DNA from: a virus
Lineage: Duplodnaviria; Caudoviricetes
IMG/VR virus record: IMGVR_UViG_3300029288_000114
Location: 33,019 to 97,018 of that record
Reading direction: 5' to 3' (one strand)
Length of the DNA: 64,000 bases
Part shown: piece after piece, positions 20,622 through 61,919 of the stretch
Position numbering within the stretch: the first letter of the stretch is position 1
Layout: each line of letters begins with the position of its first letter
Translations under genes and position numbers: made by a program
The notes under the pieces: generated by a model
Databases searched by the model: none
What the model saw: only the letters and a program-made list of their open reading frames with translations
What the model was told of the DNA's origin: nothing

Positions 20622-21488
20622 TTACTTGATTGCCCCAGCCGCTCGCAACACATCAATCTTGTTGGCGATGGTTGTGCGTGAGTAGCCAGTGATTTCTGCA
20701 AGCTGACTGTTGCTGGCGTCTGGATGCGTACGGATTGCATCGTACACGGCTTTGGTGACATCATCTTTCAATAGATTGTCCAGGACTTTCTTCTGTTGTG
20801 CGTCAGCCAACTCTTGCTTTATTCTGGCGCGCTCTGCTTTCTCATCGAACGCAGCCTGCGCGGGTTTACTTTTCTCGGCTTCCATTCGGTTGCGCTCTTG
20901 TGTCTCCCAGTTGTGCGCACCGTCATTCCACTTTGTCCAGCGTTCCTCGAATGAGGCGTTGTAGAAACCGAACTCCATTAACCCGGCATAGAAATCAATA
21001 CCGCTACACAGAATAAGAACAAGAGCGCCATACTCGCGCACAAAGCCCACCCATTGCGCCGACAGACTTGTAAGAGACACGTACACCACAAATAGGTTTC
21101 CCAAGGTCGCAATGAGAGATATAAAAATCCCCGCCCAATCCATTGCGTTAGCCTCGCTGGACTCCGTGTTAAACCACAGAACCTTTCTTTTATTGCCAGT
21201 TTTAATGCGATGTTTGCGAAACACCTCCGCCGCCGCCGCAATTGTGGACGCCTCCCCACCAAGCACCATGAAAGCAGAACCCCACTCGTGACCGTTCTTC
21301 GCCGCCAGCCCCGGAACGAACGCATTGTGCGCATACACTATCACTCCAATAGTGTACACAATCGCCGGCAACAACAACGCCCACCACGAGAAACCAAGGC
21401 GTTTCGGTTCGGGCTTCCAGTATGGTCTAATGTCCGTTGTGTTCGATGGCATACTCTGCCGCCCAGTCGTAGATATTTTCGTAGTCAT
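20622..21488 (-). CDS. multi-TM membrane protein with coiled coil and C-terminal HTH
   Basis: About four TMs; HPDASNSQLAEITGYSRTTIANKI. Confidence 0.7.
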   Translation of the reverse strand: MTTKISTTGRQSMPSNTTDIRPYWKPEPKRLGFSWWALLLPAIVYTIGVIVYAHNAFVPGLAAKNGHEWGSAFMVLGGEASTIAAAAEVFRKHRIKTGNKRKVLWFNTESSEANAMDWAGIFISLIATLGNLFVVYVSLTSLSAQWVGFVREYGALVLILCSGIDFYAGLMEFGFYNASFEERWTKWNDGAHNWETQERNRMEAEKSKPAQAAFDEKAERARIKQELADAQQKKVLDNLLKDDVTKAVYDAIRTHPDASNSQLAEITGYSRTTIANKIDVLRAAGAIK

Positions 21489-28242: not shown

Positions 28243-28273
28243 AGCTCTCCTTTCATAAATGTGTTCGATGCTA

Positions 28274-28315
28274 ATTGTAACATAAGATCGTCTGGTGTAA
28301 AATGACGTTTGTCAT
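28274..28315 (-). promoter_or_regulatory. activator-dependent promoter of the leftward block
   Basis: ATGACAAACGTCAT-N22-TACAAT with extended TG. Confidence 0.55.
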
Positions 28316-28876
28316 CCGTTTAGCCGTCGTTTGTCCGTTTCCCCTCTTTTGGATAGGTGTCTTTTCGTCTTTTAGTGCATATTCCTCTATATAGAAGATA
28401 CTAGAACCCGCGAGACGAACAATCGCACGCGCTCTGTTGAACTTGACTGCGTGGCGGTTTGTGTCAAGTAACATTTTGGGATTGTGCATGATTTTTGGGG
28501 ACGGTTCGTGTGTGCGGCTGCGCGCGTTTCACTTTGCATGTGGTGGGGAGGTATACTGGTACATTTAAACTTCCGACTATATACATTATGTAAAGTACAA
28601 TCTACCGCACGCGCAACAAAACAAAGCATACCGCCGCACCATTGCAATAATATTGCGCAAATTTGCGATCATGCGCTTTTAGTTGTCAGACAACTGACAA
28701 CTGGCATGGGCGACAGATTATTAATGCTGCGTCAGCATAGTTGTACCATATAAATTGCATTGCACACTTTTATATACTACGCCACCCAATTTTACAATGC
28801 CTACACAAAACTATAATGCACACAATATCCATTGCCACCATTGCGCCACATGCAACAAAAGCTATACACTGGTATT

Positions 28877-29053
28877 GCACGTAATACACTTACAGCATAG
28901 CGGCATTACAGCATACTACACTTACAGCATAGCATACTTACAATGCAATCATAGCATGGCTATAGTTACAGTGTAGCACGTAATACACTTACAATGGCAC
29001 AACACTTACAATGGCATGGCCATAGTGCAATACTTACATGTAATACACTTACA
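28877..29053. repeat. cluster of ACTTACA / GTAATACACTTACA direct repeats
   Basis: ACTTACA at 28888, 28920, 28936, 28987, 29004, 29032, 29047. Confidence 0.75.
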
Positions 29054-29086
29054 AGCGAGTTATGGTCATGCCCGTTAGGGCGTTAT

Positions 29087-29352
29087 AGCACAAATGTTCT
29101 AATCTATTCGCTGCTTGCGGTCTTTCCATTATATGCACAATGTCAAGCGATTGTAATTATAGCACAAGTGTTCTAATTCACTTGTGTTTGTGAGTATCCT
29201 TCATTATAAGCACAAAAGACAAGTACAATCCTTATCTTAAGACTATTTGCAATAAAACAATGCACAAAAGTTCTTTTTTGCCACAATCCCCACCCAGACC
29301 GTATTTTAGGGTTATTTTTGATACTTTTCTCCCACATTTTAACATTTGTTCT
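29087..29352. promoter_or_regulatory. four LexA-like (GAAC-N4-GTTC type) boxes
   Basis: AGCACAAATGTTCT 29087, AGCACAAGTGTTCT 29161, TGCACAAAAGTTCT 29261, TTAACATTTGTTCT 29339. Confidence 0.45.
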
Positions 29353-30199
29353 ATTCAACAAATTATGCATGTACGAATGTTTCTGCAATTTCGAGCATAA
29401 CGCCCCATTTTACCCTATAAAACAGTAGTTAAAAAGATGCTTTTCTCCCACCGGGAAAATTTTAGACATGACTTATTATTTGCTTGAGCAATCTTAAGAA
29501 TTGCAATCCCCATTGCAAAAAAGTACAAATTGCAATAGTCGCGGCTATGCTCTCACAGCTAAAATGCAATAGAATCTTGCAAAAGTGCGCAATTTATAGG
29601 CATTGCTACACTGGCAGAATTGCAAAAACAAAAAGTTTGGCCATCTTCTTTAATTGCGTGGGAGAGAAAAGTCGAGTATACTGTGTTTGTACGTGGGCAA
29701 GGCAAGCAAGGCAAGCCAAGCCAGCACTTTTAACCAGACTAGTGACATTAAAGATTGTACGCGGGAAGTCACTACCGCCGACCCGCTACCCAAGTGCGGC
29801 AGCACTTTACCAGTTTAGTCGGAGTATAGGCAAGGGCGCAGGAAACATTTATAGGGCGCAATTTTAGAAGGGTATGATCAAAACCACGGGCCCGGCGACG
29901 TGCGGAATACTTCACCTAACCTGCCTATTAATAATCTGATTAAACTTGAAACTAGTAAAGTGCGACGTTAACAATTTTATCCCTATAGTATACCATCCCC
30001 CCGAATTCACCTTCCAGCTATCAAATAGAATGGGCGTGATAATAGACATGGGATATGCTACTATAGGATACTCAAACTATCGCGCAAGCGATAGACTCGA
30101 ATTATAAACTTGTAAAATAATTTTATAGTTTGAGTGTATCACTTGCTCAATGGCAAGTGTAAAATTTTAATCACTATTCACAGTATATGGAGGTTTGAA

Positions 30200-30772
30200 A
30201 TGGCTACGTTAAAATATGATTCACGCAAAAAAGTTTATTTTCTGGTCAAGGATGTTACGGAGTCTGGAAAAACTACAAAAAAGCCTGTTGAGGTTCCGGT
30301 AGAATCTAATTCTGTTCATGCGCTTCTAGTAGTCGGTAATAGCATGGACAAAGCAACAATCCAAGCGTACCAGCTGTATACATCCTTGTCTGAAGAGGAT
30401 CGCCGGGACTACAAAGCTATCCTTGAGGATATGTTTTCCCGCATGACTGTCAATGTTTGGTCATGGTGTATCGATGACGCCAACATGCGCTATGTCTATG
30501 AAAACATGGGGCAGCTGGCCGTGCAAGCATATCATACCCTTCCGCAAGAAAAATGGGCGGAATTCTTACCCATTGCCAAACATGAGTGCGAAGTCAACAT
30601 GAGAGGCGCCTCCGCGCGGTTTATTCGCGCCGTGAACAAGGAAAAAGCCGCGGTCAAGAAAAGCACACCGGCACCGGCGCGTACTATTGAAGTCATCATG
30701 GCAGAACTTGCCGCAGCAGAAAAAGTTGTGGAGGCACTCCGCAAAGAACTGGAGACGGCCAAGGCCAAGTAG
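30200..30772 (+). CDS. hypothetical protein, first gene of the rightward block
   Basis: GGAGG RBS; 190 aa. Confidence 0.75.
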   Translation: MATLKYDSRKKVYFLVKDVTESGKTTKKPVEVPVESNSVHALLVVGNSMDKATIQAYQLYTSLSEEDRRDYKAILEDMFSRMTVNVWSWCIDDANMRYVYENMGQLAVQAYHTLPQEKWAEFLPIAKHECEVNMRGASARFIRAVNKEKAAVKKSTPAPARTIEVIMAELAAAEKVVEALRKELETAKAK

Positions 30773-31241
30773 TACAATCGCACAAGGTTATAGAATGGGG
30801 AAGGGTTATAGTGACCCTTCCCCATGTCAATTTATAGGTTACCGCATGGATAGTCGTGCTATTCATGCGGTAGTTTATAACTTGAAAGTCCAGTGTGTAA
30901 AATGATTTTACACTGGCAAGGAATGACATATGAGCGAATTGGATACTTGGTTCCCTAGAGAGAATGGAATTGATGCAATCGAAGTCATGGCGCAATCCCG
31001 CAAGGGATTATTTAAAAGTCATGCGCATTACTTGGAAGCCAAAAAGCAAGGATTGCTCCCCAAACAGTTTACCGTGAAGGGCGCAATCGTTCCTTCAGTT
31101 GAAAGGCGTTATCGCAATCTGCGTTATCGTTAGTTGTTTCACATGCCCCAACATGCGCCATGTTGGATAAGGCATGAAAATTGTGGCGCGATTAGTGACT
31201 TGTAAAATCATTTTACAAGTCAAAACAAAGGAGATTTGATC

Positions 31242-31601
31242 ATGAAAAAGCTGTTGTGTCTCTGCGTTCTGTTCGTTGTGTTGTTCTCTCCGGCAGTTTC
31301 CGTGTCCGCTGACGGCGGCGACGACCTTGTATCCACCTTGCTTGAGGTGGATAATGCCTTGACGCGAGCGGCCCGCCGCTCGTATCGCTTTTCGGCGCAA
31401 ACACGAACATGCAAGAATGCCTTCCTGGCATTCACAAAGGATGGGGAGCAACTTCCAGCGTCCTGCACGACGCGGCTCCAGCCCAAGGTCGTGGCGCAGC
31501 AATTCTGCGCTATAAACGTGAAGCGTGGAGCGCTGGTTGCTCCGCGCGGCTGGGAAAGCGCAGAAATAACGGCCTTCTGTGAATGGGCCGTCACCGAATA
31601 A
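31242..31601 (+). CDS. secreted Cys-containing protein
   Basis: Signal peptide MKKLLCLCVLFVVLFSPAVSVSA; AAGGAG RBS. Confidence 0.7.
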   Translation: MKKLLCLCVLFVVLFSPAVSVSADGGDDLVSTLLEVDNALTRAARRSYRFSAQTRTCKNAFLAFTKDGEQLPASCTTRLQPKVVAQQFCAINVKRGALVAPRGWESAEITAFCEWAVTE

Positions 31602-32180
31602 GAAGCGCAAATTAAACAATTGGATAGGGCATGAAACACTGCCCTAGTCCTAAACTGACCGCATGGATACTCATGCGCCTGTGCCAAGTCAGGATAAACA
31701 GTGAGGCGGACAACTTGTAAAATGATTTTACGAAAATCACGAAAGGAGAAAAACAATGGATACCCTTGATGCCGTCGTGCGCTTGTATGCTGATTATATG
31801 GCCGAGTATATGCGGGAGTACTATCGCCCGATTGACTATGCGTATGACGCCGCCGTTATGCGGGCGCTGTGCGATGGCGTGATAACCGCGCAGGAGGCGG
31901 ACAATTGCCTCTTTTTGATTGCCAATATTTAGTAGATTGCCGGGATGTAAAATCGTTTTACATCCTATGGCAACAAGAGCGCATGGATTGTATATGGCGG
32001 AGCTAAGCGCGCGAGCGTTAGCTTGGATACTAGGGAGAGTGATGTCTGCCGAGTAAGGCATTATCGAATCGCCGACGACATGCCGCCATGCGTTCTTGTT
32101 GCTGTAGGATAAGGCGGAAGCCCCAAGTGTAGAATGTAAAATCATTTTACACTTTCAGACAATCAAAGGAGATATTTGAA

Positions 32181-32441
32181 ATGGCTATCGTTCGCAATAC
32201 TCAGGATCAGGAAGTCAAGTCGGCGTTTTCTGTTGGTCTCAACGTTGTGCTGATCGGCAGCAAAAAGATGACGGCCGAAGAGCAGGACAAAGCCGTGAAA
32301 GTGGCGAAAGTGCGCGTGCTGATTGTGGACGCCAGTGACCCGAAGAACGTCCTGGTAGACGAAACCACTGACGCCCGCGAGTTTAGCACCGGATCGGTTG
32401 GTTACGGCCTGAATATCCGCAGCGCTGAATTCTCGAAGTAG
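32181..32441 (+). CDS. hypothetical protein
   Basis: AAGGAG RBS; bounded by motif A on both sides. Confidence 0.7.
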   Translation: MAIVRNTQDQEVKSAFSVGLNVVLIGSKKMTAEEQDKAVKVAKVRVLIVDASDPKNVLVDETTDAREFSTGSVGYGLNIRSAEFSK

Positions 32442-32847
32442 GTTGTAAAACCATTTTACAGGTTGTCCAGCCCTAGACAAGGAGAATTTATGAATAAGCA
32501 TTGCAGATCGCCGCCTTGAGCGGTAACATGCGACGCTGGCGCATACCAGCCAATATTTCATGCGCAGGAACGCGCCTGGGGCACCGTAAAGCGCATGAAC
32601 AAGATAGGCGTCATAAATATATGATGCCAGCCCGCGAAGGGCAATGACTGGAAAATCCCCATAAGGCAAGCGTCAGATCGGGCGCGGTGTCTTTTGTCGG
32701 CTCACTTCCGGCATGGGGAAATAGGCAAGGCGCATGTCGCGATGTGCGCGTGAAGTATCGGCCTGCCGCCTGTGCGCCTTGCTGTTTTTTGTAAAATCAT
32801 TTTACCTGTCCAGCCGGATAGGTAATCACAAACAAGGAGAGATTGAC

Positions 32848-35800
32848 ATGGAAAAGGGATCAGTTTACTGCATGTCGGATCATAGAATCTTTATACTTGA
32901 AACTATGCCGCACTCCGCAATAGTTATAGAATGGGAGGGCGATCATAACGTGGCGTATGTCAAGGTCTTGTCTGAGGAAACCATAGAAACTTATTACGAA
33001 AAAGACGAAGACCCGGATCGCGCGTGGTGGATTGATTACGCCGTTGACTATCTAGAAAGTCGAGCAGCGTAAAATCATTTTACAAGGAGATTGTCATGAC
33101 CGTTTTCAATGTGGACTTATTCGGCAAGACCATGCGTCGCAAGATAGACGGCGCGCGCGTATTACTGACAGGCTGGCGGCGTTTTGACGGGCAGGATTAT
33201 CTGTACCAAACAGTCGTTGGCGGTATCCCGTCATGGATAGACTGGCGACTTATAGCGCCATTGTCGGCGCAAAGGATAGGTGGGGAATGAGTGAAGAAAC
33301 CTATGAAGCATTGGCAAAAGCCCTGCGCGAGTGTGGCGCAGAATCGGCAGTTGTCCGCGTCAGCAAAGATGCGGTTCGCCCAAAGTATCGGGCGTCTGAT
33401 AAGGGGCTGTAAAATGATTTTACAAAACACGAAAGGAGAGAACAATGATAGAATTAGCGGCCAGCGAATGGCTGGCAAGCGCGAATAAAGGGCCAGACGC
33501 AGACGGCACGTATCGGAGCGGGCAATCCGTGTGCTTAACCGCGCACATGGTCAGGCATGTAACCGGGCAATACGTCAGACATCTGTGTATCCCGTCTGAT
33601 ATGGACAGCTTTGCTAATACAGGAAGCGCCTATGTCATCTTGGATCAGTCCGACGTGGACAGTTTGAATAAATATGGGCAATTATAGTAACTAATCGAAA
33701 GGAGAACCACGTATGTTGTTTTTTCTAGGACTACTCATGATAATTGTCATCGGCTCCTTAATCGGAGCATGGTTGAATAGGAACGAATAACCTTACAACC
33801 CGCTTCCCCACGAGCCATGCGCCGTGGTGGATACCTGCGGTCATGCGGCATCTTGGAAGCGGGTTGTAAAATCATTTTACAAGGAGGCAATTGTGTTCTG
33901 GTATAAACTGTATCAACTTATCGCCGCGACGTTCTGCCGCGTGGCAGACGCGTTTGAGGCATTAATGACATGGGCCGAGTCTCATGTCCCAGAGGATTTG
34001 TAGTGCAAGGAGGCAACAATGAGCGAAATAAAATTGATCGGTAATGGGCATCTTATCCCCTTGCAATACGCATGGGAGCTAACGCCCGCGCGACTCCGCG
34101 AAGCAAAGCGCGAGCACGATTGGGCGTTCGCCGATCTGGAAGACGACGCCGATTGCGAACACCAGTTTTTCTGGTATCGCGGCTGGCTGTATATCCTCGA
34201 CGACTTTATGCGCGTCGAGCGGCGAACCGCGCCTGAGTGGATGCAGGAATTCGACGCCTACACAAACGACTCATTTTTCTCTGGCGTCGTGATTAAGTAT
34301 GTGGATCAAGACTTCGACGGCGATTGCGTCAAGGCGTGGACGTTCATTTCGTAAAATGATTTTACAAAAGCACTAGGAGGTGTTTGATGTACACTATCAC
34401 GAACCACGATGTTGTGCGGGAACTTGAAAACAGGGGCATTGATGTTCTGACCGGGGAACGCTGTTCGCTTGGGATGCGCGTGCTGTGCGATTACACGCAC
34501 TCTGGCGCGGAGATTCTGCGCCGGTGTTTGGACATTACCATCCTGGAAGATGGCTCGAACTGGAATTCTGGCAGCAAAGATGACCCGCATGTCGGATCAA
34601 TTATGCTGTTACGAGAAATGCTTGAACCGCTGGCTATCTTTGCGATGGCAACGGCGCATGGCGTCTATGCCGTAATGATTGAGAAATACCCCAAGGAAGC
34701 GGGCCTGCGCGGATACGCCATTCATGCATTCGCGTCACAAGAAGAACTGCGCGAGCGCGTCGAATGGTACAACAAGACGTTTCAAGAAGTGCGCGACTAT
34801 CGCATCATCATGGGGGCTGGATCGGCGGTCAACAATCGGCACGAATTCACTGGCCGATTGTAAAATGATTTTACAAAGGAGTTTGAAATGACAAGCGTAA
34901 AGAAGTACAAACAAGAGATCGAACAAGATTGGGATTGGAAATATGTTGTCGCATCTGCAAAAGATAATCCGCAGCCGTCTATCGACTCGCCCGACGACGA
35001 GATGTTCGGATATTTCTATCTCGGTACAGTAATGAACCTCGCGCCATCCGGGAAATATTATATGCCATGGTGCTCAAACTTCACGGCAAAAGAGGCCGAG
35101 GATGACGAGCGGTGGTACGCTGCTCTTGACGCGATTGCCGAGAAGCATGGCGGCTGGATTGAGAACGGCGAGGGCGACCCGTGCGACATATTCTTCGTCG
35201 TCAGAATCGACCAAGACGAAGAAGCGTTGTAAAATGATTTTACACCTGTCCAGCTCTGGACAACCGAAAGGAGAGACGGCATGAAAGCTATACTTGCAGT
35301 AGACGTGAAATACAAAGACCGTATTCCGTGGGCCGACGCCGATTCGTTGGTGCTCTCGAAGGGAAGCGTTGTTGATGTAATTCCGGCAGACAACCTACCA
35401 TACGGGAACGGAATAGAGTTCTGGATTGATGTGCCTGAACTCCGCGATGACCCATACGGGATGGGACTGTTTGATGGGGAATACGAGCTTCTTGACGGTG
35501 TGTCTCCGCGAGCCATTTCCGATTTGGAGAAGCTACATATCGCAACAATAATGGAAAACCCCCTGCTTGCAAAGCACTATACCGGCAGCCTGCGCAATGA
35601 GATAGACAGGCTGCGCGACATCGCCGATAAAATCGAGCGGTGCATTTCGTAAAATGATTTTACAGGAGGCTTGCGATGAAAGCGTACAATCAATACAGGT
35701 TCTTGCGCCGCCGCGAAAGCGGTATGGCGCGCGAGCAACGTCAGAATGTCAAGCCGCGCCAGATCGAACATGTGGTGCGGGCCATCAATCATATCGAGAC

Positions 35801-38800
35801 GCGGGAGCAGTTCGCCCGCTTGTCTCGGTAAAATCATTTTACAATCAGATGAAAGGAGTGCTATGAAACTATGCCCGTTATGTCGCTCGCCTTGGGCAAT
35901 ATGCCCGGAGTGCGGGAAAATCTTTAGACACGGTACGGCGCATCATTGCGACAACGGGCGGTGCGTAGAAGTGAATGCGCCGCTTGATTGCCAGGGATGC
36001 GGAGCGGTAGTTGCGCAATCGCTTGACGGCGTTCTTGATTACAGCATGAGGCTTCATAAATACGAGAAGGGAGTGCTATGAACAAACACTGGAACGAACT
36101 GCGCCACAAGTCAATGACCCACGACGAATTGATGCAAGAAAAGTTCTACAAGGTTTTCGACCGGCAACTTTGCGGGTTTGACGAAAAGATTATCCACAGA
36201 GTAACGGGGCGTTTCTCGTTGGATGTTGTGGCGTTTGACGATTACTGCCACGAGCATCTAGGCTACACCGAAGAGGAACACGGCAGTTTGTTTGACTTCT
36301 GTGTGCATCTAGGCGGCAAAGAAATGGGCGACTTCGTGAGGTCGCTTATCTAAAGGAGTAACATGGATAACAAATGGTTCGATGAATACGGAAACTTTAT
36401 CGGGGAATTGCCAGCCGAGTGCGTGAGAGACTGCACTCGCATGGGCGACGTTACCAGCTATATTGACCAGTGGATTGCGCGACTGTCATTCTATGCGCCG
36501 CGCGACTTGTCCCTAAAGTACCTGCGTGGATGTCTGGCAGATTACGAAGACGAAGAGATCGCCGCGTTCACGCAGCAGCAGGTAAACCGCTGGATTATGT
36601 TCTTTGCCACCGACGCGATTAGGAACGACGGCGATTTCTGCGGGCTGATCCCGTAAAATGATTTTACATTCACATTCAAAACAAAGGGGAGCAAGATGAA
36701 CAAGTACACATATCTCTATGTTGTCCAGGGACGATACGCTGGATGGGAAGACCTATCTCAATCAGAAAGTCGGCGCGAGGCACTTGCAGACCTGCGAGCA
36801 TATCGCATGAATGAGCATGGCGAATTCCGAATGATTAGCCGCCGCGAACGCAACCAAAAGGAGAACTGAAATGGGATACACTAGAAAACAATACCTTGCT
36901 GGCGAGTGCTCGCACAATGAATACTACGCACAGTTTGTGACTAGCGCAGTAATAGAAACTGTAAAGCGCCACATCGGAGAAGATAAAATCGCCGCAAGCA
37001 CAGATGAATACTTCAACGACATCCCGCTGCACCAATGGGATATGCTGGAAAGAGCGATGCGCCACACGATGGACGAGAAAGCATTTAAGGCTCTTGCGTG
37101 TCCAGAGGCACCGAGCGGGCAAATTTACTGGTCACTATGCGACGCGGTGTGTATTGCAAAACAGGCGGCGCGAATGATAAAGGAGAACAACAATGAAACT
37201 CGCAATTAACATCGACTTGGACAATGACGCCTTTCAACCAGAGGCAGGCGAAGAGGTTGCGCGTATCTTGCGCGACGCGGCAGCCAGGTGCGAACGGCTT
37301 GGAAATTTGTTCGATGATTTACGGGCAAATCTCCGTGACGTTAATGGCAACACAGTCGGGGCGCTGACTGTAAAATGATTTTACATCCTGTCCAGAGATA
37401 GACAGGCGAAAGGAGAATAGCAATGAGCAAGTTCAACATGAACGTTGAGTATTTCGATACCCTTGCCAATGCAACAAAGTGGATTCGCTCTGCCGAGAAA
37501 GCGATTGACTGGCACAACTACCAGACCGCTGTACACGAAGTCTTTCTTGTGACAGGCGATCTCAACGCCGCGACGGAAGCCTTCGCCTGGCTTGCCGCAA
37601 GAGATCAGCCTGATGCCGTGGTTGATGATGGATACTGGTGGGAGATCATCGATAAGAACACCGAGTACGTCGGCGAGGTTAACTACCGCTACGCTTTCGA
37701 TGGCGGAGCGCACTATTTCGAGAACAACAAACCGCACCCAAGCTACAACTATATTGGCGCAGACAATCGCCGCCACGAAGTCGCGGGGTGTTTTCACTTT
37801 TAGAAAGGAGCGAGCAATGAATATTTCTATCGGAGATAAAGTTGGGCTACTCGTGGCTGGCGAGTCCGTAGTAGGACAAGTAACCAGTTGGGACTCTACA
37901 ACCTATTGCTTCACAATCGTTGTTGTCAAGATATTGACTGGAAGATTCGCCGGAGAGACAGCGGCAAAGCCGTTAGGCGAATTGTTTGAACCAGAGTTTG
38001 CTTGCAAAGGAGAGAGCAATGAAAATCAAAGTTACTGAGATCACATATCATCGCAACGGAGTGCACGGGAACGGTTTCTATGTCGTGTCGTTTATTAGCG
38101 AGGGCGATAATATGATCGGCGTCGTCTTCGACGAACCAGGAAACGTCGCCGTGTTCAACGCTGCGCTTCTTAGAGAAGGTGTCATCGGATTCTACTACAA
38201 TTCTTGGCGCGGGGATTGGTACGAACAAGCCCTGCGCGAAGCGATTGTGGAATACAAGTGCAATTTGTAAAATGATTTTACGTCACGAAAGGAGACATTG
38301 AAATGGGACGCGGAGTATATTATCCACACGACAATGAGAACGGGTTCGCTTGGGCCGAACAGGTAATCGTACACACATCTGACCTATACGACTACGAGCA
38401 GGACAACGAAGACGGCGATCTGTGGCGCGAGACTTTTGACGACTTGTGGGGAAGCGTTGTGGCGTGCTTGCCTAATTCGTGACGAAGACACGCTTGTTCA
38501 CGTCGTCGTCGGTGCGCTTTACAATGAATGTTTCCCGTCTCACGAAAATCTTGCGCCGAAGCATGTACACAACACGATGAAGCGCATTAAGAAAACACTG
38601 CGGGGCTTAGGGGTTGAGCTATACTATCGTAGCTCTGCCTGGACTACATCAAGGCTGGATAATTAAGGAGCATTACGATGTTGACAGAACAAGAATACAA
38701 AGAGCTTCGTGAAAAGATTGACGCACACAAGAACTGGCTTGAAGCACGCGACTACAAATCGTATCGGACAGAAGAATGTCCAGAAGACTTGCGCGTGACA

Positions 38801-41800
38801 AACGAGCAGCGCAGCGCCGTTGAAGTTTACGAATGGGAGAACGACCCGCCCGAACAATACTTCGCTTATGTCAACGGGAAGCACAGAACGGTAGATGGCA
38901 TTACATACCGTCCGACTATTACAACGTGGATGGGGGATACCCTTGGATATGTTATCTTCGGCGTCGAATATCGTTCGTGCTTCGGCGACAAGCGCGTGCC
39001 AATGTGTGTTACCGGAACAAACGGCAAGAAATACTACGGCACTTACTACAAATCTGCTGGCGACTACTGCCGATTGAAAGCATACAAAGATGGAAGCATG
39101 GCGTATCTTAACTTTCAACGGTGGGGTCGTTAATGCGTAAAATGATTTTACACAAAGGAGACCAATGAAATACTTCTATACCCAAACTAACATCGGAATG
39201 GCAAAATACGTTGTGAACTATTACGATGGCAACAAGAAACACCCAGACGGGAGTGACGCTTTGGATATTAGGCTATTCAAGAACAAGCGGAATTTCAATG
39301 GGTTCGTAAAGAGTCTGCGTGCCGATGGATACGCAGAGCGTGCTTAACACGACAAAGGAGAACGATGGAAGCAAATGAATTGTTGGAAAGATACAAAACG
39401 TGGTTACTAGACGACGAAAGAAGCAGCGACGACGAGCGCGAGTATGCACAAGAAATCACGGCAGAGGATTACATCCCAAGCACCGAGGCCGTTGACCTGC
39501 TAGACGCTCTCGGAGTGGACTATGCTGGCGCTCGCCTTGAATGGTACAACTGCACCGAGATTGACTTCAACACGCTCGCCGTGCTTGCCGATCTCTACCT
39601 GCATGTTTACACCTGTGAAGCTTGCGGAGAAACCGGATACTACGCAAAGGTGGAAGGCGGCGATTGGGACTTGTTTCAAGGCGCTCTCCAATGCGAGAAC
39701 GTTTCAACTATCGAGGGCGAGTTTCTTGGCAAGACATTCTGCACCGAGATGTGCGACGGCTGCATCTCGAAGATCGAAACTATGTTAGGAATCTGACCTG
39801 TTTGTAAAATGATTTTATACTTTCACTTTCAGACAAAGGAGCATTGAAATGAATAACTGGTACATTGTGGAGTTTGACGAAACGGAATATTGGCAACAGT
39901 TTTTCCTTGACAAGTACGGCATCGAGAAAGTCATGACGCAATACGTCTTCGATGCGGGGTGGCAAGTCCACTGTTGCGAGATCACGCCGAGCTATGAGCT
40001 GTGGTTTGTGCAGCACGCCCCCGTTTTCCGCGACGGGATGAGCGACCTCGAAATCGAAGAGGCGGAAGACGAAATGCGGCGCAACAACAATCAAGAGCAA
40101 GTCGAATACCGCCACTGTCGGGGGCTAGACCGAATGATTGCAGAGAGCAGCCGCCATATCGTTCGTCTGGGCGAGTTCGAGAGCGACGAGGGTGGCGAGC
40201 AAGATGCCCACAACGAGCAGGCAGAAGATGCCGTTGAATACTGTCAAGGCAATTGGCAATTCTAGTGTAAAATGATTTTACAATTCACTTGTCCAGAGCT
40301 GGACAAAAGGAGCAGCGCAATGAGTAATATTAAGAAGAAAGCCAGATGGGTATACGTCGTTTCTAAAGTGTGCGAAGACAATCAAAGCGTCGCGTCGCCA
40401 GTGTTCGTAACGACAAGCATAATATTCCGCGAAGACGCAGTGCGGCTGTATATCGAGTGGACTGTCAGTGATCGCCCGTGGGAATGTGGTGACAACATTA
40501 AAATCGAGCGACAGCCATCTGGAGAATACAGAGCAGAGCGTGGCGGGAAATACGCGGGGACGTTCATCGTGACTGGCGTTCATAGCAAGCTAAGATAAAG
40601 GAGCAATGTAATGGACAAATCAGAACAGATGACACACGACTTGTCACAGATCGTTCGTATACTAGAGAAATACACGGACGACTACGACATCATGGAAATC
40701 CTTGAGGCGGCAGCGTTTGAATTGGAGATTGACCGCGAACGCTTTGCACAGTATATTCTTGAAACGTTGGGGAAAGGAGCATAATGCACACTGATATTGT
40801 AATTGAGTTCCCAAAGTCAAATTGGGTTGATGATAGCACGGGGCGCGTGTTAATCAAGCACGACGCCACACCAGAGATCGGCGTCTCGTTCCACGTCTTC
40901 TGGGGCGAGCACTCTGAAGAGTTCATCATGATGTCCGAGACAGACGAGTTCGGCGACACTGATTTCGTTGTCGTCGCAGCAGATGACCTGCGCGAGATTT
41001 GCAAGGGCTACCAAAACGGTAGCTTTGAGTATGGATTCCGGGCACTCAACTGTGTCCGCGAATCGTTCGCGTCGCCATTCGTGGCGGCAGCGCAAGTAAT
41101 CTACAATGTGATGTAGAAAGGAGAATCGAAATGGAATACACAGAAGAAGAGAACAATCGAACTTTGACAATAGTGACCGTCTTGGCTCTTGGCCCGATGG
41201 ACAATCTTGTACTAGCTGCGGCAAACAACGCGCTTAACTTCACGGGGAAAATCGCGGCGCGCAACGCGGCGTTTGAGTCCATGTACAACGCCAACTTGAT
41301 TAAAGATGACGGATCGCCATACGACAAGGAATCGTTACTTGACGCACTCTCGTATGAGATCAACCGGCGAGTTGATGCCGGTACATTTGTGTAAAGGAGA
41401 ACAGCAATGAGACCAATTACAATTCTTGCAATAACACAACAGATGTTCAAAGAGAACAACCGCTATCTTGGCGTTCTTGCAGTTGGAGATATGTCCGAAG
41501 AGTCTGCCAAGGCGACGCGGCGGGCGGCGGCTTACAGCATGATTCTGCTATTCCTTGTGCTGTACGAGACAGGCGAAGAGTGGGTGCTGATCGAGGCTGA
41601 CCATCAAACCATACACCAACTCGCGGCGCTGATGCAAAATGCCGTCGCGGAGATTGAGGCACAAGATTGGCAGAACTACACCGAGGGATACGAGATTGTC
41701 AAGGCTTGGCTGGATACGAAAGGAGACAGCAATGCGTAGAGAGATTGTCAATTTGGCAATAGCAACAGCAGATGGCGCGCAAATGTTTCCAGTCTCGGCG

Positions 41801-43365
41801 ATGACCTACAAGGGGCTGGCTGTTCATCGGGGCGTGAACTTCGATGGCAAGAAAATCGTATCGCTTAACGGCGTGTGGCACATCACCCATATCAGCAGCG
41901 GGCGCTGCTTGGATATTCCCGGCACGATAGAGAGTTACAAACACGCTCGCTATATCGCCGAGAAGATAGGCGACCTGGTAGACTTCACCGGAACAGAAGG
42001 CGAAACGGCGACGGCTATCCAGAGAGTGTACGACGAGGGACGCAACCTGCAGAAAGAAGTGTTCGAGATTGTAAAATCATTTTACGCAGAGAAAGGAGAA
42101 TAACATTGACTCACAACAATACGAAATCCCTATTGGCGTAGATCATATTCGCCACCTATGGACTGGCGACCGCATCACCGTCAAGGAATCTGTGAAGTGT
42201 TATGAATACGATTATCCACGAGGACAAGGGCGCAACCTGGTAACATTTAATCCTGGCGACGTGGCGACAATCAATTCGTTCCCGCCGAAAGTGTGCGGCT
42301 ACTCAAAAGATGGCAGCGCATACTTCGTTCTGTTCACGGCGAAGGGGCACACGTTCGGCACAAGCTGGCGCAACATTCAAAAGGTGAAAGGAGAATAACA
42401 ATGGAAAAGCGACAATTTGCCGAGACAGTAGCAAACGCAGTGTTTAACTTCGGCGGCATGAACCAGTGTTGGCTGGTGTACGATACGGTAGCAGAAAAGT
42501 TCTTCTATCAAAGCTCTTTAACCCCAGTGTTTTTCAACGAGATCGTTGTTGATAAAGACTGTAGCGCCGATTCGTTTGGCATAGACACGTACGCGGTTTC
42601 AGAAGAAGAACTTGTCGCGGCGATCTTAGACGGATGCTACGGCGAATATTGGAGCGATATTCAATTCAAGATTCTGTATCCAGAAGGAGAATAACTTGAC
42701 ATACACATACAAAGATATACTAGAACAAGAAATAGATCGGATGTTTGGCAACCTGCGCATCGAATGGCGACCACGCGCCAACGTCGAGTTGTTCGAGTCA
42801 CTGCTAGAACAACAGTACGACGTGTGGCTACAGGAGTTGGCGAATGTAGTTTACGAATCCTTCGGTCATCCAGTCCCGCTAATGTTCGACGGAGAGACGG
42901 TAATGCCCGCCGTCTGGCTAGATGAAGAGGACAACTTCAATGCCGCGAATGTGGTGTGTCAAGACGACTCGCGGATGTGCCGCTCTATGAATAAGTCGTG
43001 GCACAATATCCTGCACGTTGTCAATTTGTATTGTCAGACAGTTCAGCAAGAGATCGGCGCGTGGTGGAACAATGTGCGGGAAAAACAGTGACATTTGTAA
43101 CTGTCCAGAGCTGGACAGGCTAGTATACTAAGTTAAATGCACAAAGGAGAACTGAATGAACACAACAATACGAGACACCGGACAGGTTTGCATTTACTGC
43201 CTTGCTAAAAGGAGACTCGCAACCGAACCGCCATTCGACCGGGACGCCCATCACATTCACCAAGAAATCACAGATGACGGAAACGTCGTGGCAGAAGGTT
43301 GCTACGACTCTGATTGCAAGGGCTACTGGAAACGCACAGATATGTGGTATTACTTAAATGAATAG
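32848..43365 (+). other. array of about 30 small orphan CDSs (e.g. 32848-33072, 33096-33290, 33445-33687, 34019-34354, 34387-34863, 34888-35232, 35281-35652, 35863-36081, 36078-36353, 36363-36656, 36696-36869, 36871-37209, 37193-37378, 37423-37803, 38019-38270, 38678-39133, 39165-39347, 39365-39796, 39849-40265, 40320-40598, 40784-41116, 41131-41394, 41407-41739, 41732-42103, 42401-42694, 42696-43091, 43156-43365); probable early/host-takeover region
   Basis: Same strand, tightly packed, nearly all preceded by AAGGAG/AGGAGG, acidic and aromatic-rich small proteins. Confidence 0.75.
43088..43129 (+). promoter_or_regulatory. activator-dependent promoter with motif B between the activator site and -10
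   Basis: GTGACATTTGTAAC-TGTCCAGAGCTGGACA-N6-TATACT. Confidence 0.55.
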
Positions 43366-59746: not shown

Positions 59747-60060
59747 GCGGTCAAGAGAGTCGCATTAGGCGATTCGTTGGAATAGTCCACTTGACTACTA
59801 AGGCGGAAGCGCGTAGTCGGGTCGCGCTGATATAGTCTTCGATCTGGTGAACGTTGCTCGTCTGTGACGCGAAAGCCCTAGGTGAGTTGTCTCGCAGATT
59901 ATATAGGGGTTTAGAGCAACCTCTTCTGATTACCGAGCCAGAAGCCGGAACGCGCCCGCCCGGCCCGCCCGTAAAATCAAGACTCCGCCAGTACCGCAAA
60001 CTTGCGGGGTTCGAGTCCCCGTAGCAGCGAAAAAACGTGACTGGCGGGGTCGTTAAGAGC
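59747..60060 (+). ncRNA. candidate structured ncRNA or long leader with a tRNA-like T-arm
   Basis: No credible ORF; multiple helices; GCGGGG-TTCGAGT-CCCCGT enclosed by a 12-bp stem. Confidence 0.5.
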
Positions 60061-60079
60061 ACGGTTTTTGGGGGATCAA

Positions 60080-60817
60080 ATGAAATACGCGACGTTTGAC
60101 CTGGAGATTTGGCGAGAGATTCCAGATGGATGTGATGATATAGCGCCGTATCGTCCTCTTGGTATTACTTGTGCAGCAATCTGTATTGTTGACGACGGCG
60201 TTCGTGTGGTAGAGAATTTCACCCCGCATGTATTAGAGAGTGGAGAATACGCCAACTCGATGTCTGCGCAACAATGTCGAGAGATGGTTAATCGCCTTGT
60301 GTTTTTATATCATCAGGGCTACGACATCGTAAGCTGGAATGGGCTAGGCTTTGACTTTGACGTGCTTGCCGAAGAGGTGCGTGACACCGAATACGCCAAG
60401 CGGGTTGCCGATTTAGCCTTGCACAGTGTTGATCCGGCGTTTGTGATGCTGTGCGCCAAGGGCTATATGATTGGGCTTAACACTGCCGCGAAAGGGCTTG
60501 GCGTAGAAGGTAAGACCGAGGGGATGCACGGCGATCTTGCTCCGCAGATGTGGCGACAAGGGCGTGCGCAACAGAACAAGGTGGTCGAATATGTTGAGCA
60601 AGACGTGATCGCCACCGCAAATGTGTACGAAGCCATGCCGAAATTTCGCGGAGTGCAATGGACTTCACGTACCGGGCGTTTGAATTTTTGGAAACTACCA
60701 AAGAGCGATTTTAATGTCAGCGACGGGCTTGCGCTTCCAGAGCCGGATACATCCTGGATGTCTAATCCGCGCACTAGAACATCTGTCTATGCCTGGACAG
60801 CCAAATATCTCGATTAG
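60080..60817 (+). CDS. RNase H-like 3'-5' exonuclease domain protein
   Basis: TFDLEI, SWNGLGFDF, EYVEQDV (DEDDy-like). Confidence 0.75.
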   Translation: MKYATFDLEIWREIPDGCDDIAPYRPLGITCAAICIVDDGVRVVENFTPHVLESGEYANSMSAQQCREMVNRLVFLYHQGYDIVSWNGLGFDFDVLAEEVRDTEYAKRVADLALHSVDPAFVMLCAKGYMIGLNTAAKGLGVEGKTEGMHGDLAPQMWRQGRAQQNKVVEYVEQDVIATANVYEAMPKFRGVQWTSRTGRLNFWKLPKSDFNVSDGLALPEPDTSWMSNPRTRTSVYAWTAKYLD

Positions 60818-61082: not shown

Positions 61083-61919
61083 ATGTCTAAATCTGATACT
61101 ACTATTAATCTTGATGCCGCACTGGTCAAGGCTCAGGCGGAGATGCCGGTGGTGGAGTTTGATGCCACGAATCCGTTCCTAAAGAATAAATATGCGTCGC
61201 TTGGTGCCGTTATTCGTGCCATTCGTCCGGTTCTGGCGAAACACGGGCTTGGGTTTGTGCAGTTTCCTGTGTCTGATGCGGTTGGCGGCGTTGGCGTGGA
61301 GTCTACAGTGATCCATTCTAGCGGAGAGTGGCGTAGCGAGCGGTTCTACCTGCCAGCGGGTAAAGAGACGGGTAAGTCGTCAGCGCAGGTTGCAGGGTCA
61401 ATCGTCTCGTATCTGCGGCGCTACGCACTCGCGGCAATGTTTAGCTTATATGCCGACGAGGATACCGATGGCGGTAAAGGAAACAGCGGAGCGCAACAGG
61501 CGCAACCGGTCTCCGCATTCTCGTTTGATGACGCTATTCTTCTTGGTGTTGACGCTAACAAAGAAGCAGAAATGGCGTTGCGCGAAGATGGCGTTGGAAC
61601 TCTGGCGCGCATTGAGATGTTGCGTCGTGTACCGACAGACGCTTCGGCAAGCGCTGTTGCTACAGTATTCGGTGATTCGGTCAAGTTGTTTTACAAGGAC
61701 TATGACGCGCTTCGCGCGCTTGCCGGGCTGACTCGTGGCGAGAAAGACAAGGAGTACAACGAGCTGGCGAATGACTTGTTCGGGCATAAGGCATCCACAA
61801 TTGGCGAGCTTCTGTGGATGTGGCGCATTATGTCACACATGGCGAATGGCTCTACGCGCGAATATCTTGTGAATTGGTATCGCGCCCTGAACACGCAAAC
61901 GAGTACTGATGGCGACTGA
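61083..61919 (+). CDS. ERF-family ssDNA-annealing protein
   Basis: NPFLKNKYASL, HSSGEW, QVAGS.VSYLRRYAL, DEDTDG. Confidence 0.9.
   Translation: MSKSDTTINLDAALVKAQAEMPVVEFDATNPFLKNKYASLGAVIRAIRPVLAKHGLGFVQFPVSDAVGGVGVESTVIHSSGEWRSERFYLPAGKETGKSSAQVAGSIVSYLRRYALAAMFSLYADEDTDGGKGNSGAQQAQPVSAFSFDDAILLGVDANKEAEMALREDGVGTLARIEMLRRVPTDASASAVATVFGDSVKLFYKDYDALRALAGLTRGEKDKEYNELANDLFGHKASTIGELLWMWRIMSHMANGSTREYLVNWYRALNTQTSTDGD

Follow-up and report, generated by a model that had tools for sequence, protein, structure and literature searches.

The 64,000-nucleotide window considered here, bases 33019–97018 of the linear 97,018-bp virus record IMGVR_UViG_3300029288_000114 (Duplodnaviria; Caudoviricetes; completeness approximately 88% by CheckV), contains, at 30200–43365 on the plus strand, some 40 small ORFan genes (36–190 aa) that form a co-oriented array with strong AAGGAG ribosome-binding sites (RBSs). 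This array is punctuated by a 17-bp palindrome, TGTAAAAT-N-ATTTTACA, which is restricted to the initial 12 kb of the unit transcribed rightward and is tentatively read here as a multi-copy operator. GC skew and the open reading frames (ORFs) together outline a leftward operon at 8.4–28.2 kb, an AT-rich control region and then the long rightward unit that begins with the array. The control region, a divergent stretch of 1.9 kb (28250–30110, GC 0.42), separates the array from the leftward operon and holds ACACTTACA-type iterons together with two orphan half-sites (28296 and 30158). The iteron-like repeats, at least seven ACACTTACA units with variable flanks at 28880–29060, may represent a replication origin or the site of a second regulator. 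The genes of the array are presumed to be early or host-takeover genes. When 31 of the encoded proteins were compared with Pfam none matched at the curated cut-off, with three weak matches below it, and a comparison of nine with PHROGs gave one weak, unnamed match, a scarcity that is usual for ORFans of this sort. The genes at 30930, 33096, 35676, 36696 and 39165 encode small basic proteins. The first early gene product (190 aa) is likewise an ORFan with one close homologue only, and its single-sequence AlphaFold model (pLDDT, the predicted local confidence score, of 48) was unusable.

The palindrome is found 23 times, each copy with at most one mismatch and all of them within 30111–42086; nine copies are exact matches to TGTAAAAT-S-ATTTTACA. 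Shuffled sequence contains a mean of 0.41 sites, with a maximum of 2, when as many as three mismatches are allowed. The dyad symmetry is perfect and has an 8-1-8 geometry. Conservation is concentrated in a 15-bp core, GTAAAAT-S-ATTTTAC, within which 11 of the 15 positions are invariant (2 bits each) and three more have one or two variant copies each (at least 1.57 bits), the centre contributing 0.81 bits. The outer positions of the 17-mer are weaker, with T in 17 and A in 19 of the 23 copies, and the 30 nt to either side carry an information content of approximately zero. At the centre the base is G in 13 copies, C in nine, A in one and T in none. The commonest variant is a C at the first position, which is found in five copies and produces a C-A mismatch in the putative stem, and no copy has a compensatory change in its arms. 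A sequence-only reading of this stretch had described about 23 copies in 12 kb, both orientations of the central base and no full copy elsewhere in the window; all of this is borne out, and the absence extends to the whole 97,018-bp record, where the other 33 kb add no further copies.

Within the array, 22 gene gaps are at least 23 nt long and 21 of them contain the motif, which is absent from all junctions of 17 nt or less, and blocks of overlapping genes have no internal copy. The sole long spacer inside the array that lacks the 17-mer is the 195-nt segment at 38482–38678. Small genes continue beyond 42086, where the motif does not. In ten copies the stop codon of the upstream gene falls inside the motif, as TAA at motif position +2 in nine and as TGA at +7 in one (37369), and all ten had been correctly picked out in the sequence-only reading. 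That reading also had an RBS and the next gene following soon after the motif, and a start codon preceded by a Shine-Dalgarno (SD) sequence does lie 11–41 nt 3' of the motif in 20 of the 23 copies; the exceptions are the copies at 30111 (72 nt), 31946 (no ORF) and 32444 (a 9-codon stub).

The copies follow one another along the array with small variations on this theme. Copy 1, TGTAAAATAATTTTATA (30111–30127, centre A), precedes the first early gene (30200–30772) by 72 nt. It is followed by copy 2 (30896–30912, centre G; 17 nt before ATG 30930), copy 3 (31201–31217, centre C; 24 nt before ATG 31242), where the palindrome is 4 bp longer on each side, and copy 4 (31716–31732, centre G; 23 nt before ATG 31756). 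Copy 5 (31946–31962, centre C, position 9 = G) has no downstream ORF, copy 6 (32135–32151, centre C) lies 29 nt before ATG 32181, and copy 7 (32444–32460, centre C) comes right after a stop codon at 32439–32441. Copy 8 (32790–32806, centre C) lies 41 nt before ATG 32848. A run of copies with the TAA stop inside begins at copy 9 (33068–33084, centre C; 11 nt before ATG 33096) and copy 10 (33408–33424, centre G; 20 nt before ATG 33445), is interrupted by copy 11 (33865–33881, centre C; 11 nt before GTG 33893) and resumes with copies 12 (34350–34366, centre G), 13 (34859–34875, centre G), 14 (35228–35244, centre G), 15 (35648–35664, centre G; 11 nt before ATG 35676), 16 (35827–35843, centre C; 19 nt before ATG 35863) and 17 (36652–36668, centre G). 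Copy 18 (37369–37385, centre G) is the one with TGA, and copy 19 (38266–38282, centre G; 20 nt before ATG 38303) again has TAA. The remaining four are copy 20 (39136–39152, centre G; 12 nt before ATG 39165), copy 21 (39803–39819, centre G; 29 nt before ATG 39849), copy 22 (40266–40282, centre G; ATG 40320) and copy 23, the last (42070–42086, centre C), which lies within the 3' end of the coding sequence 41732–42103.

A second palindrome, TGTCCAG-NN-CTGGACA (16 bp), is present in about 20 copies across the 97-kb record, both within genes and directly upstream of RBSs (32464, 35247, 37389, 40290, 43102, 50142, 56020 and about 14 more). It stands between the 17-mer and the RBS in four early units, or in five if a degenerate copy after 32790 is included. 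Thus copy 14 is followed by the second palindrome, an RBS and ATG 35281, copy 22 by the second palindrome at 40290, and copy 7 by the second palindrome, an SD sequence and the 9-codon stub. Copies 7 and 8 are separated by 330 nt (32461–32790), the stub included, with 86% identity to the corresponding part of a related phage (L042:963–1215); despite the good RBS before the stub there is no credible ORF in either phage, and the stretch may be a cassette that has decayed or may specify a non-coding RNA.

A predicted -10-like hexamer, AATAAT, shares bases with copy 1. This copy is retained, with G at its centre, in a variant contig (L292), where it sits inside a 70-nt conserved block, the sequence farther upstream being unrelated. 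An operator at the early promoter would be expected in just this position, with the other 22 copies downstream. Since the left arm, TGTAAAAT, itself includes the -10-like TAAAAT, a 5/6 match to TATAAT, the motif might instead be a promoter element that works independently of a -35 box with the host RNA polymerase and a phage factor, giving each cassette its own promoter, for which the one-promoter-per-gene cassettes of T4-type phages provide a precedent (PMC2839356). Transcription predicted to start about 7 nt downstream of the hexamer would give 5' untranslated regions of roughly 13–45 nt that include the SD sequence, and the orphan half-sites of the control region coincide with predicted promoter hexamers. 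Several features make such a role distinctly unlikely. The absence of information in the flanks means that there is no -35 box, and -35-like hexamers (at least 4/6 to TTGACA with 16–18 bp spacing) accompany three of the 23 copies against about 2.5 expected by chance. Moreover, the TG of the motif is one position out of the extended -10 register, the right arm, which a promoter would not need, is conserved as well as the left, and the centre may face either way. If transcription began at the motif, the RNA of at least five units would have its SD sequence 0–3 nt from the 5' end, and screening of the ORFs by Pfam or PHROGs revealed neither a sigma factor nor a phage RNA polymerase.

The motif could also act in RNA. 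It always lies between a stop codon and an SD sequence on the transcribed strand, where a hairpin of 7 bp with a 3-nt loop, or an AU-rich single-stranded site, might serve an RNase or a translational regulator in a polycistronic early transcript, either cutting the transcript into units or tuning translation of the next gene. Gene-class-specific signals of this sort have precedents in the RNase III sites of T7 and in RegB/RegA of T4 (PMC3014915). The hairpin itself has a predicted energy of -3.6 kcal/mol, with an AU-rich stem of 7–8 bp, a 3-nt loop and no U tract, and hence does not qualify as a terminator or as a substrate of RNase III. What is kept in the arms is their sequence and not their pairing, as shown by the lack of compensatory changes and by the outer-pair variants that unpair the stem (C-A in five copies), and in RNA there would be no reason for a loop centre to be only ever G or C, in either form. 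The distance from motif to SD sequence also ranges from 0 to about 30 nt. Transcript processing at one site at least is suggested by a twister-like ribozyme match 4 nt upstream of copy 4, but a ribozyme beside a processing site would be redundant. A signal in RNA is therefore judged unlikely, and the hairpin processing sites proposed in the sequence-only reading are disfavoured. The twister-like match (type-P1, RF03160) is full-length, at 31647–31711 on the plus strand in the 154-nt spacer 31601–31756, and scores 49.1 bits against a gathering score of 67.2, with an E value of about 2e-8 to 7e-8 in larger searches. It keeps the UAA cleavage site and the CCAAG, UAAA and GAGG blocks, and a variant of it in a contig from metagenome run X5 differs mainly in the P4 stem-loop.

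More information about the motif comes from comparison with a relative (L039/L042, a Logan contig of 72 kb); its FtsK-like protein is 82% identical, and its own array contains 13 copies of the palindrome in the same position between stop codon and RBS. In all 13 the centre is G or C, which makes 35 of 36 copies in the two phages together, and at four of eight orthologous sites the centre has switched between G and C with the arms identical. These flips indicate that a G:C pair is required but that its orientation is free, as would be expected of a symmetric dimer bound to duplex DNA, to which one base pair on the dyad axis presents itself identically in both orientations, and not of an RNA loop or a directional promoter, for which G and C would not be equivalent with A and U excluded. 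The 8-1-8 arrangement is that of the classical 17-bp operators of dimeric helix-turn-helix (HTH) proteins. The motif also appears to be under selection, judging from its retention in the relative beside genes that are 33–55% identical at the protein level or have no homology.

The explanation preferred here, with a probability of roughly 0.45, is that the many copies of the palindrome are sites on double-stranded DNA at which a symmetric, dimeric protein binds to regulate the early gene array. A sequence-specific protein with two-fold symmetry, encoded by the phage or by its host, would recognise the 17-bp palindrome on the duplex, and transcription across the array would be regulated by the filling of these sites, 23 in number, with a predicted early promoter overlapping the first. 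The likeliest effect of occupancy would be that the array is silenced or shut off, and the action would not depend on the orientation of the sites. Among the functions put forward in the sequence-only reading, multi-operator silencing by analogy with mycobacteriophage stoperators fits the anatomy best, with its sharp 15-bp core, its dyad and its central G:C pair in either orientation, although the analogy is imperfect in that stoperators are asymmetric. The 17-mer, often with a common leader and RBS, borders each unit and in addition doubles as a patch of homology through which units of leader, ORF and motif are exchanged, probably by the phage's own ERF annealing protein and exonuclease.

Exchange at the motif is directly visible, as units have been deleted, inserted or replaced there among related phages, within a comparison that covers two lineages and a few short variants and in which all of the run data are assembled contigs. 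The arrays of the window and of the relative are collinear but mosaic, with 12 homologous gene pairs at 33–95% protein identity and unrelated genes between them. A segment containing a 158-aa gene (34387–34863) has 92% DNA identity to the relative, which collapses just beyond copies 12 and 13, the left and right boundaries of this module. Elsewhere the two phages differ by a single unit, with the window having an additional leader, 74-aa ORF and motif copy between copies 8 and 9; the one copy in the relative (L042) has on its left the flank of copy 8 and on its right that of copy 9, which places the crossover in or just after the motif. A contig from the JGI (L046), with flanks that are about 99% identical, has the 213 nt between copies 4 and 5 replaced by 457 nt. 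Divergence here begins at the last base of copy 4 and stops 3 nt before copy 5, and the insert contains a third copy of the motif, a divergent allele of a 58-aa gene and one inverted unit that is bordered by motif copies and a 14-nt inverted leader.

Contigs from four other metagenomes provide 11 further joints, eight of which have an anchor of 30 nt or more to each side. Six of the 16 endpoints of the anchored joints lie within 6 nt of a motif copy, positions that make up about 5% of the stretch. Examples come from metagenome run X5, in whose contigs the gene after copy 17 is swapped from 1 nt past the copy (36669), a deletion of the gene before copy 18 ends at the first base of that copy (37369) and a joint ends 3 nt past copy 23 (42089). 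Other joints run through 9–11 nt of homology between RBS leaders (41115 to 42386 and 41717 to 42091), and one runs through two identical copies of the second palindrome (40289 to 43102), with the deletion of 2.8 kb. When only junction-type endpoints are considered, six of 12 are at motif junctions, compared with the 21 of 35 junctions (60%) that have a motif, which is no enrichment. This similar use of motif and motif-less junctions means that the motif is not specially recombinogenic.

These results bear on the suggestion, also made in the sequence-only reading, that the motif is a recombination site of a gene-cassette array, for which a comparison of breakpoints in relatives was proposed. 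Breakpoints of indels and replacements in relatives do fall inside the motif, so the comparison does not refute the suggestion; they fall at motif-less junctions too, with RBS leaders and the second palindrome also used, and no integrase is found in the ORFs screened by Pfam or PHROGs. The palindrome is the commonest junction repeat, often accompanied by one of three or four shared leaders. The leader classes, three or four types, are common to non-homologous genes, an example being the leader of copy 21, which is shared with copy 6 and with L042:6328. The simplest account of the exchanges is homology-driven shuffling in which any short repeat at a junction can act as the crossover point, and not an integron.

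A dedicated site for site-specific recombination, with integron-like cassette capture by an unrecognised recombinase and a palindromy that permits either orientation, would explain the exact cassette boundaries at the motif and the inverted L046 unit between motif copies with its inverted leader. It is nevertheless highly improbable, given that the crossover position inside the 17-mer varies between cases, that breakpoints also use RBS microhomology and the second palindrome, that a 17-bp perfect palindrome is unlike attC and that Pfam recognises no tyrosine or serine recombinase in the 106 ORFs screened. There is a slim chance, and no better than that, of a phage-borne capture system in which an unrecognised enzyme, or the ERF protein and exonuclease guided by a palindrome-binding protein, inserts, excises and inverts units of leader, ORF and palindrome; such a system would be an integron-like engine that turns over host-takeover genes in a virulent phage. 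Alternatively, the motif may bind nothing at all and may be a homology linker, a self-perpetuating boundary at which cassettes are acquired and homogenised by recombination. Crossovers inside the motif, the additional copy that gained units bring with them, the leaders common to non-homologous genes and the presence of genes for an ERF protein and an exonuclease all fit such a linker. A linker model does not, however, require a perfect palindrome or a centre confined to G or C, 17 bp is short for efficient homologous exchange, and the RBS leaders and second palindrome are equally good crossover points, which makes the motif dispensable for shuffling. A linker without a binding function is accordingly rated as improbable.

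Searches for the motif elsewhere gave little beyond these relatives. An exact-motif scan of IMG/VR returned single matches at chance level only, and a search of IMG/VR for related loci with the FtsK-like protein found none. In scans of metagenomes and genomes, the multi-copy matches listed were the relatives L046 and L106 and otherwise AT-rich loci or tandem 21/42-bp arrays in contigs of metagenome-assembled genomes, these others being judged to be unrelated. Two of the tandem arrays (L235:6836–7083 and L279:3952–4240), with a period of 21/42 bp, have units that contain a near-identical 17-bp palindrome (TGTAAAATGATTTTACA and variants); the first adjoins a gene for an EAD11-domain protein and the second adjoins XisH/XisI and a methylase, neighbours that provide no link to the phage of the window. 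Two distant phages with FtsK-like proteins (L288 and L290; about 33% identical, AT-rich) are without the motif. Upstream of a short block of small genes these have two to three full TTGACA-N17-TATAAT sigma-A early promoters with a different palindrome in the spacer (L288:7738–8064 and L290:8061–8407). The relative has, in addition, an IS605-type OrfB (TnpB) at L039:17273–18463 on the minus strand, just upstream of a DUF8224 gene, and the genes to either side of it are nearly adjacent, 3 nt apart, in the European Nucleotide Archive (ENA) contig of the window's phage (L040).

Outside the array, the proteins most relevant to exchange are an ERF-family single-strand annealing protein (61083–61919, plus strand; PF04404, E 1.7e-24) and an adjoining exonuclease with an RNase H fold, similar to the PolB exonuclease (60068–60817, plus strand). 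Systems with an ERF-type annealing protein and an exonuclease recombine short and imperfect homologies, and the ERF protein is a candidate for the enzyme responsible for short-homology exchange. With respect to a binder, the sole HTH protein recognisable by Pfam outside the array, where 66 further ORFs were screened, is a 288-aa protein with a C-terminal winged helix (20625–21488, minus strand), which is a weak candidate. Its similarity to the Spo0J HTH is weak and not significant (E 0.079), and an atlas search places it among generic winged-helix clusters and in a phage family without an assigned role. Neither an integrase, a tyrosine or serine recombinase nor a repressor of the Xre/CI or any other family was found by Pfam in 106 ORFs or by PHROGs in the 19 largest ORFs (the latter screened by PHROGs only), and the same screens detected no Xre/Cro or ParB family protein, in a record that is approximately 88% complete and with methods that may miss divergent regulators. 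The statement in the sequence-only reading that no recombinase or obvious cognate repressor is visible therefore holds for integrase-type enzymes, but the window does encode the ERF protein, the exonuclease and the winged-helix protein. Host regulator boxes (CodY, Fur/PerR/Zur 7-1-7, TyrR and cre) were also considered, and were dropped as none of them fits the arms.

A number of observations weigh against the operator interpretation. No cognate protein has been identified among the array proteins compared with Pfam (31) and PHROGs (nine), nothing links the sole winged-helix protein elsewhere to the motif, and the lack of a detectable integrase or classical repressor gives no support to silencing of the lysogeny type. 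The good -10 hexamer in the left arm makes a promoter-element role possible, motif junctions are no likelier to be breakpoints than motif-less ones, and the comparison spans two lineages plus a few variants.

The phage itself, of approximately 106 kb, is uncultured, and has also been assembled as a 105,885-bp ENA contig. Genes for a portal, a major head protein and a 1486-aa tape measure protein identify it as a siphovirus-type phage, and it further encodes ribonucleotide reductase, ThyX, an RNA ligase, a DnaB-type helicase, two FtsK-like ATPases and DNA methyltransferases. A megablast of the early array against a collection of cultured phages gave no matches, and there is no close cultured relative. 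The sequencing runs that hold at least half of the sampled words of the stretch come from landfill and groundwater metagenomes. Strong use of SD sequences, together with the best matches of one conserved protein, which are Bacillus phages, hints that the host may belong to the Bacillota. The gene that follows copy 23 has an ATT start at 42105 in the window and an ATG in the otherwise identical ENA contig (L040:8537), which is either a start-codon polymorphism or a sequencing difference. A DUF3800-VI RNA (RF02915) is matched at 59748–59797 on the plus strand with 45.7 bits, above the gathering score of 35.

With regard to known systems, the motif is a further example of a recognised phage feature and not a new kind of system. 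The closest parallel in layout is the promoter-early stem-loop (PeSL) cassettes of T4-type phages (Arbiol et al. 2010, PMC2839356; Comeau et al. 2014, PMC4122927), whose shuffling has been interpreted as crossover at the repeated junction sequence. As with PeSLs, the repeated element follows the stop codon of a small ORFan and precedes the next SD sequence and start, is concentrated in a hyperplastic region and coincides with breakpoints of indels and replacements between related phages, which here are found at motif-less junctions as well. PeSLs, however, are about 50–70 bp long and combine a full sigma-70 promoter with a stable G/C-rich stem-loop terminator, and cassettes of this type are excised as mini-circles, whereas the element here is a 17-bp AT-rich palindrome with -35 hexamers at chance level and a hairpin that is not stable and has no T tract. 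Integron attC sites, at 57–141 bp, are imperfect palindromes with R and L boxes, extrahelical bases and an adjacent IntI, in contrast to a perfect 17-bp palindrome and the absence of any Phage_integrase match. The RNase III sites of the T7 early region differ too, in having a double-stranded stem of at least approximately 20 bp and a conserved structure, where the window has a stem of 7–8 AU-rich base pairs and a conserved sequence.

Closer in form are the repeats of Cluster O mycobacteriophages, a 17-bp dyad TGTTCGG-NNN-CCGAACA present in more than 30 copies with no assigned function or binder (Cresawn et al. 2015, PMC4351075). These share the length, the invariant inverted arms, a central asymmetry that is not tied to the direction of transcription and a phage that is not obviously temperate. 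They differ in sequence and host group, and in being distributed genome-wide with about one third of the sites intragenic, unlike the single 12-kb early array with its sites at junctions of stop codon and RBS. The stoperators of Cluster A mycobacteriophages (L5 gp71 type) are asymmetric sites of 13–14 bp, oriented with transcription and bound by a monomeric immunity repressor in a temperate phage (PMC9283540, PMC6550527). Protein bound at stoperators obstructs elongating RNA polymerase. They resemble the motif in that many copies of one short site occupy the short intergenic gaps of co-directional operons, with a block to transcription as the proposed action, but the palindrome is symmetric and no repressor or integrase appears in the screened ORFs. 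The SPBRE of Bacillus phage SPbeta is a repeated 15-bp element that is bound by the master repressor MrpR (PMC10516654); it too lies upstream of many early genes and was known from sequence alone before being proved to be a repressor site, and it differs in lying in the promoter regions of a temperate phage, in having only about 10 bound sites and in having a binder with a recombinase fold.

The 17-bp operators of lambda type, bound by dimeric HTH proteins (Cro/CI), have in common with the motif a dyad that passes through a central base pair (8-1-8). Such operators overlap divergent promoters and adjoin the genes of their cognate HTH proteins. No Cro/CI-like HTH was recognised by Pfam or PHROGs near the control region, however, and only copy 1 overlaps a predicted promoter. 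Phage phiC31 of Streptomyces is reported to have 17-bp, highly conserved inverted repeats (CIRs) at many early intergenic sites, where its repressor binds (Ingham et al. 1994; Wilson et al. 1995); phiC31 differs in being temperate with a known repressor gene.

It is in arrays of early genes that are small and evolve fast that phages keep host-takeover and anti-defence functions, and how such genes are regulated as a class and exchanged is poorly understood. The present locus is an unusually clean one, in which one 17-bp palindrome is both the mark of the gene class and, to the very base, the place where natural variants have swapped cassettes, and the motif could serve as a marker of exchangeable accessory-gene units in metagenomic phages. 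PeSLs and the Cluster O repeats share the theme, and what is notable here is the very tight packing of stop codon, motif and RBS together with cassette exchanges that are exact to the base. The binder, once identified, would add a symmetric and orientation-free counterpart to the stoperators and the SPBRE.

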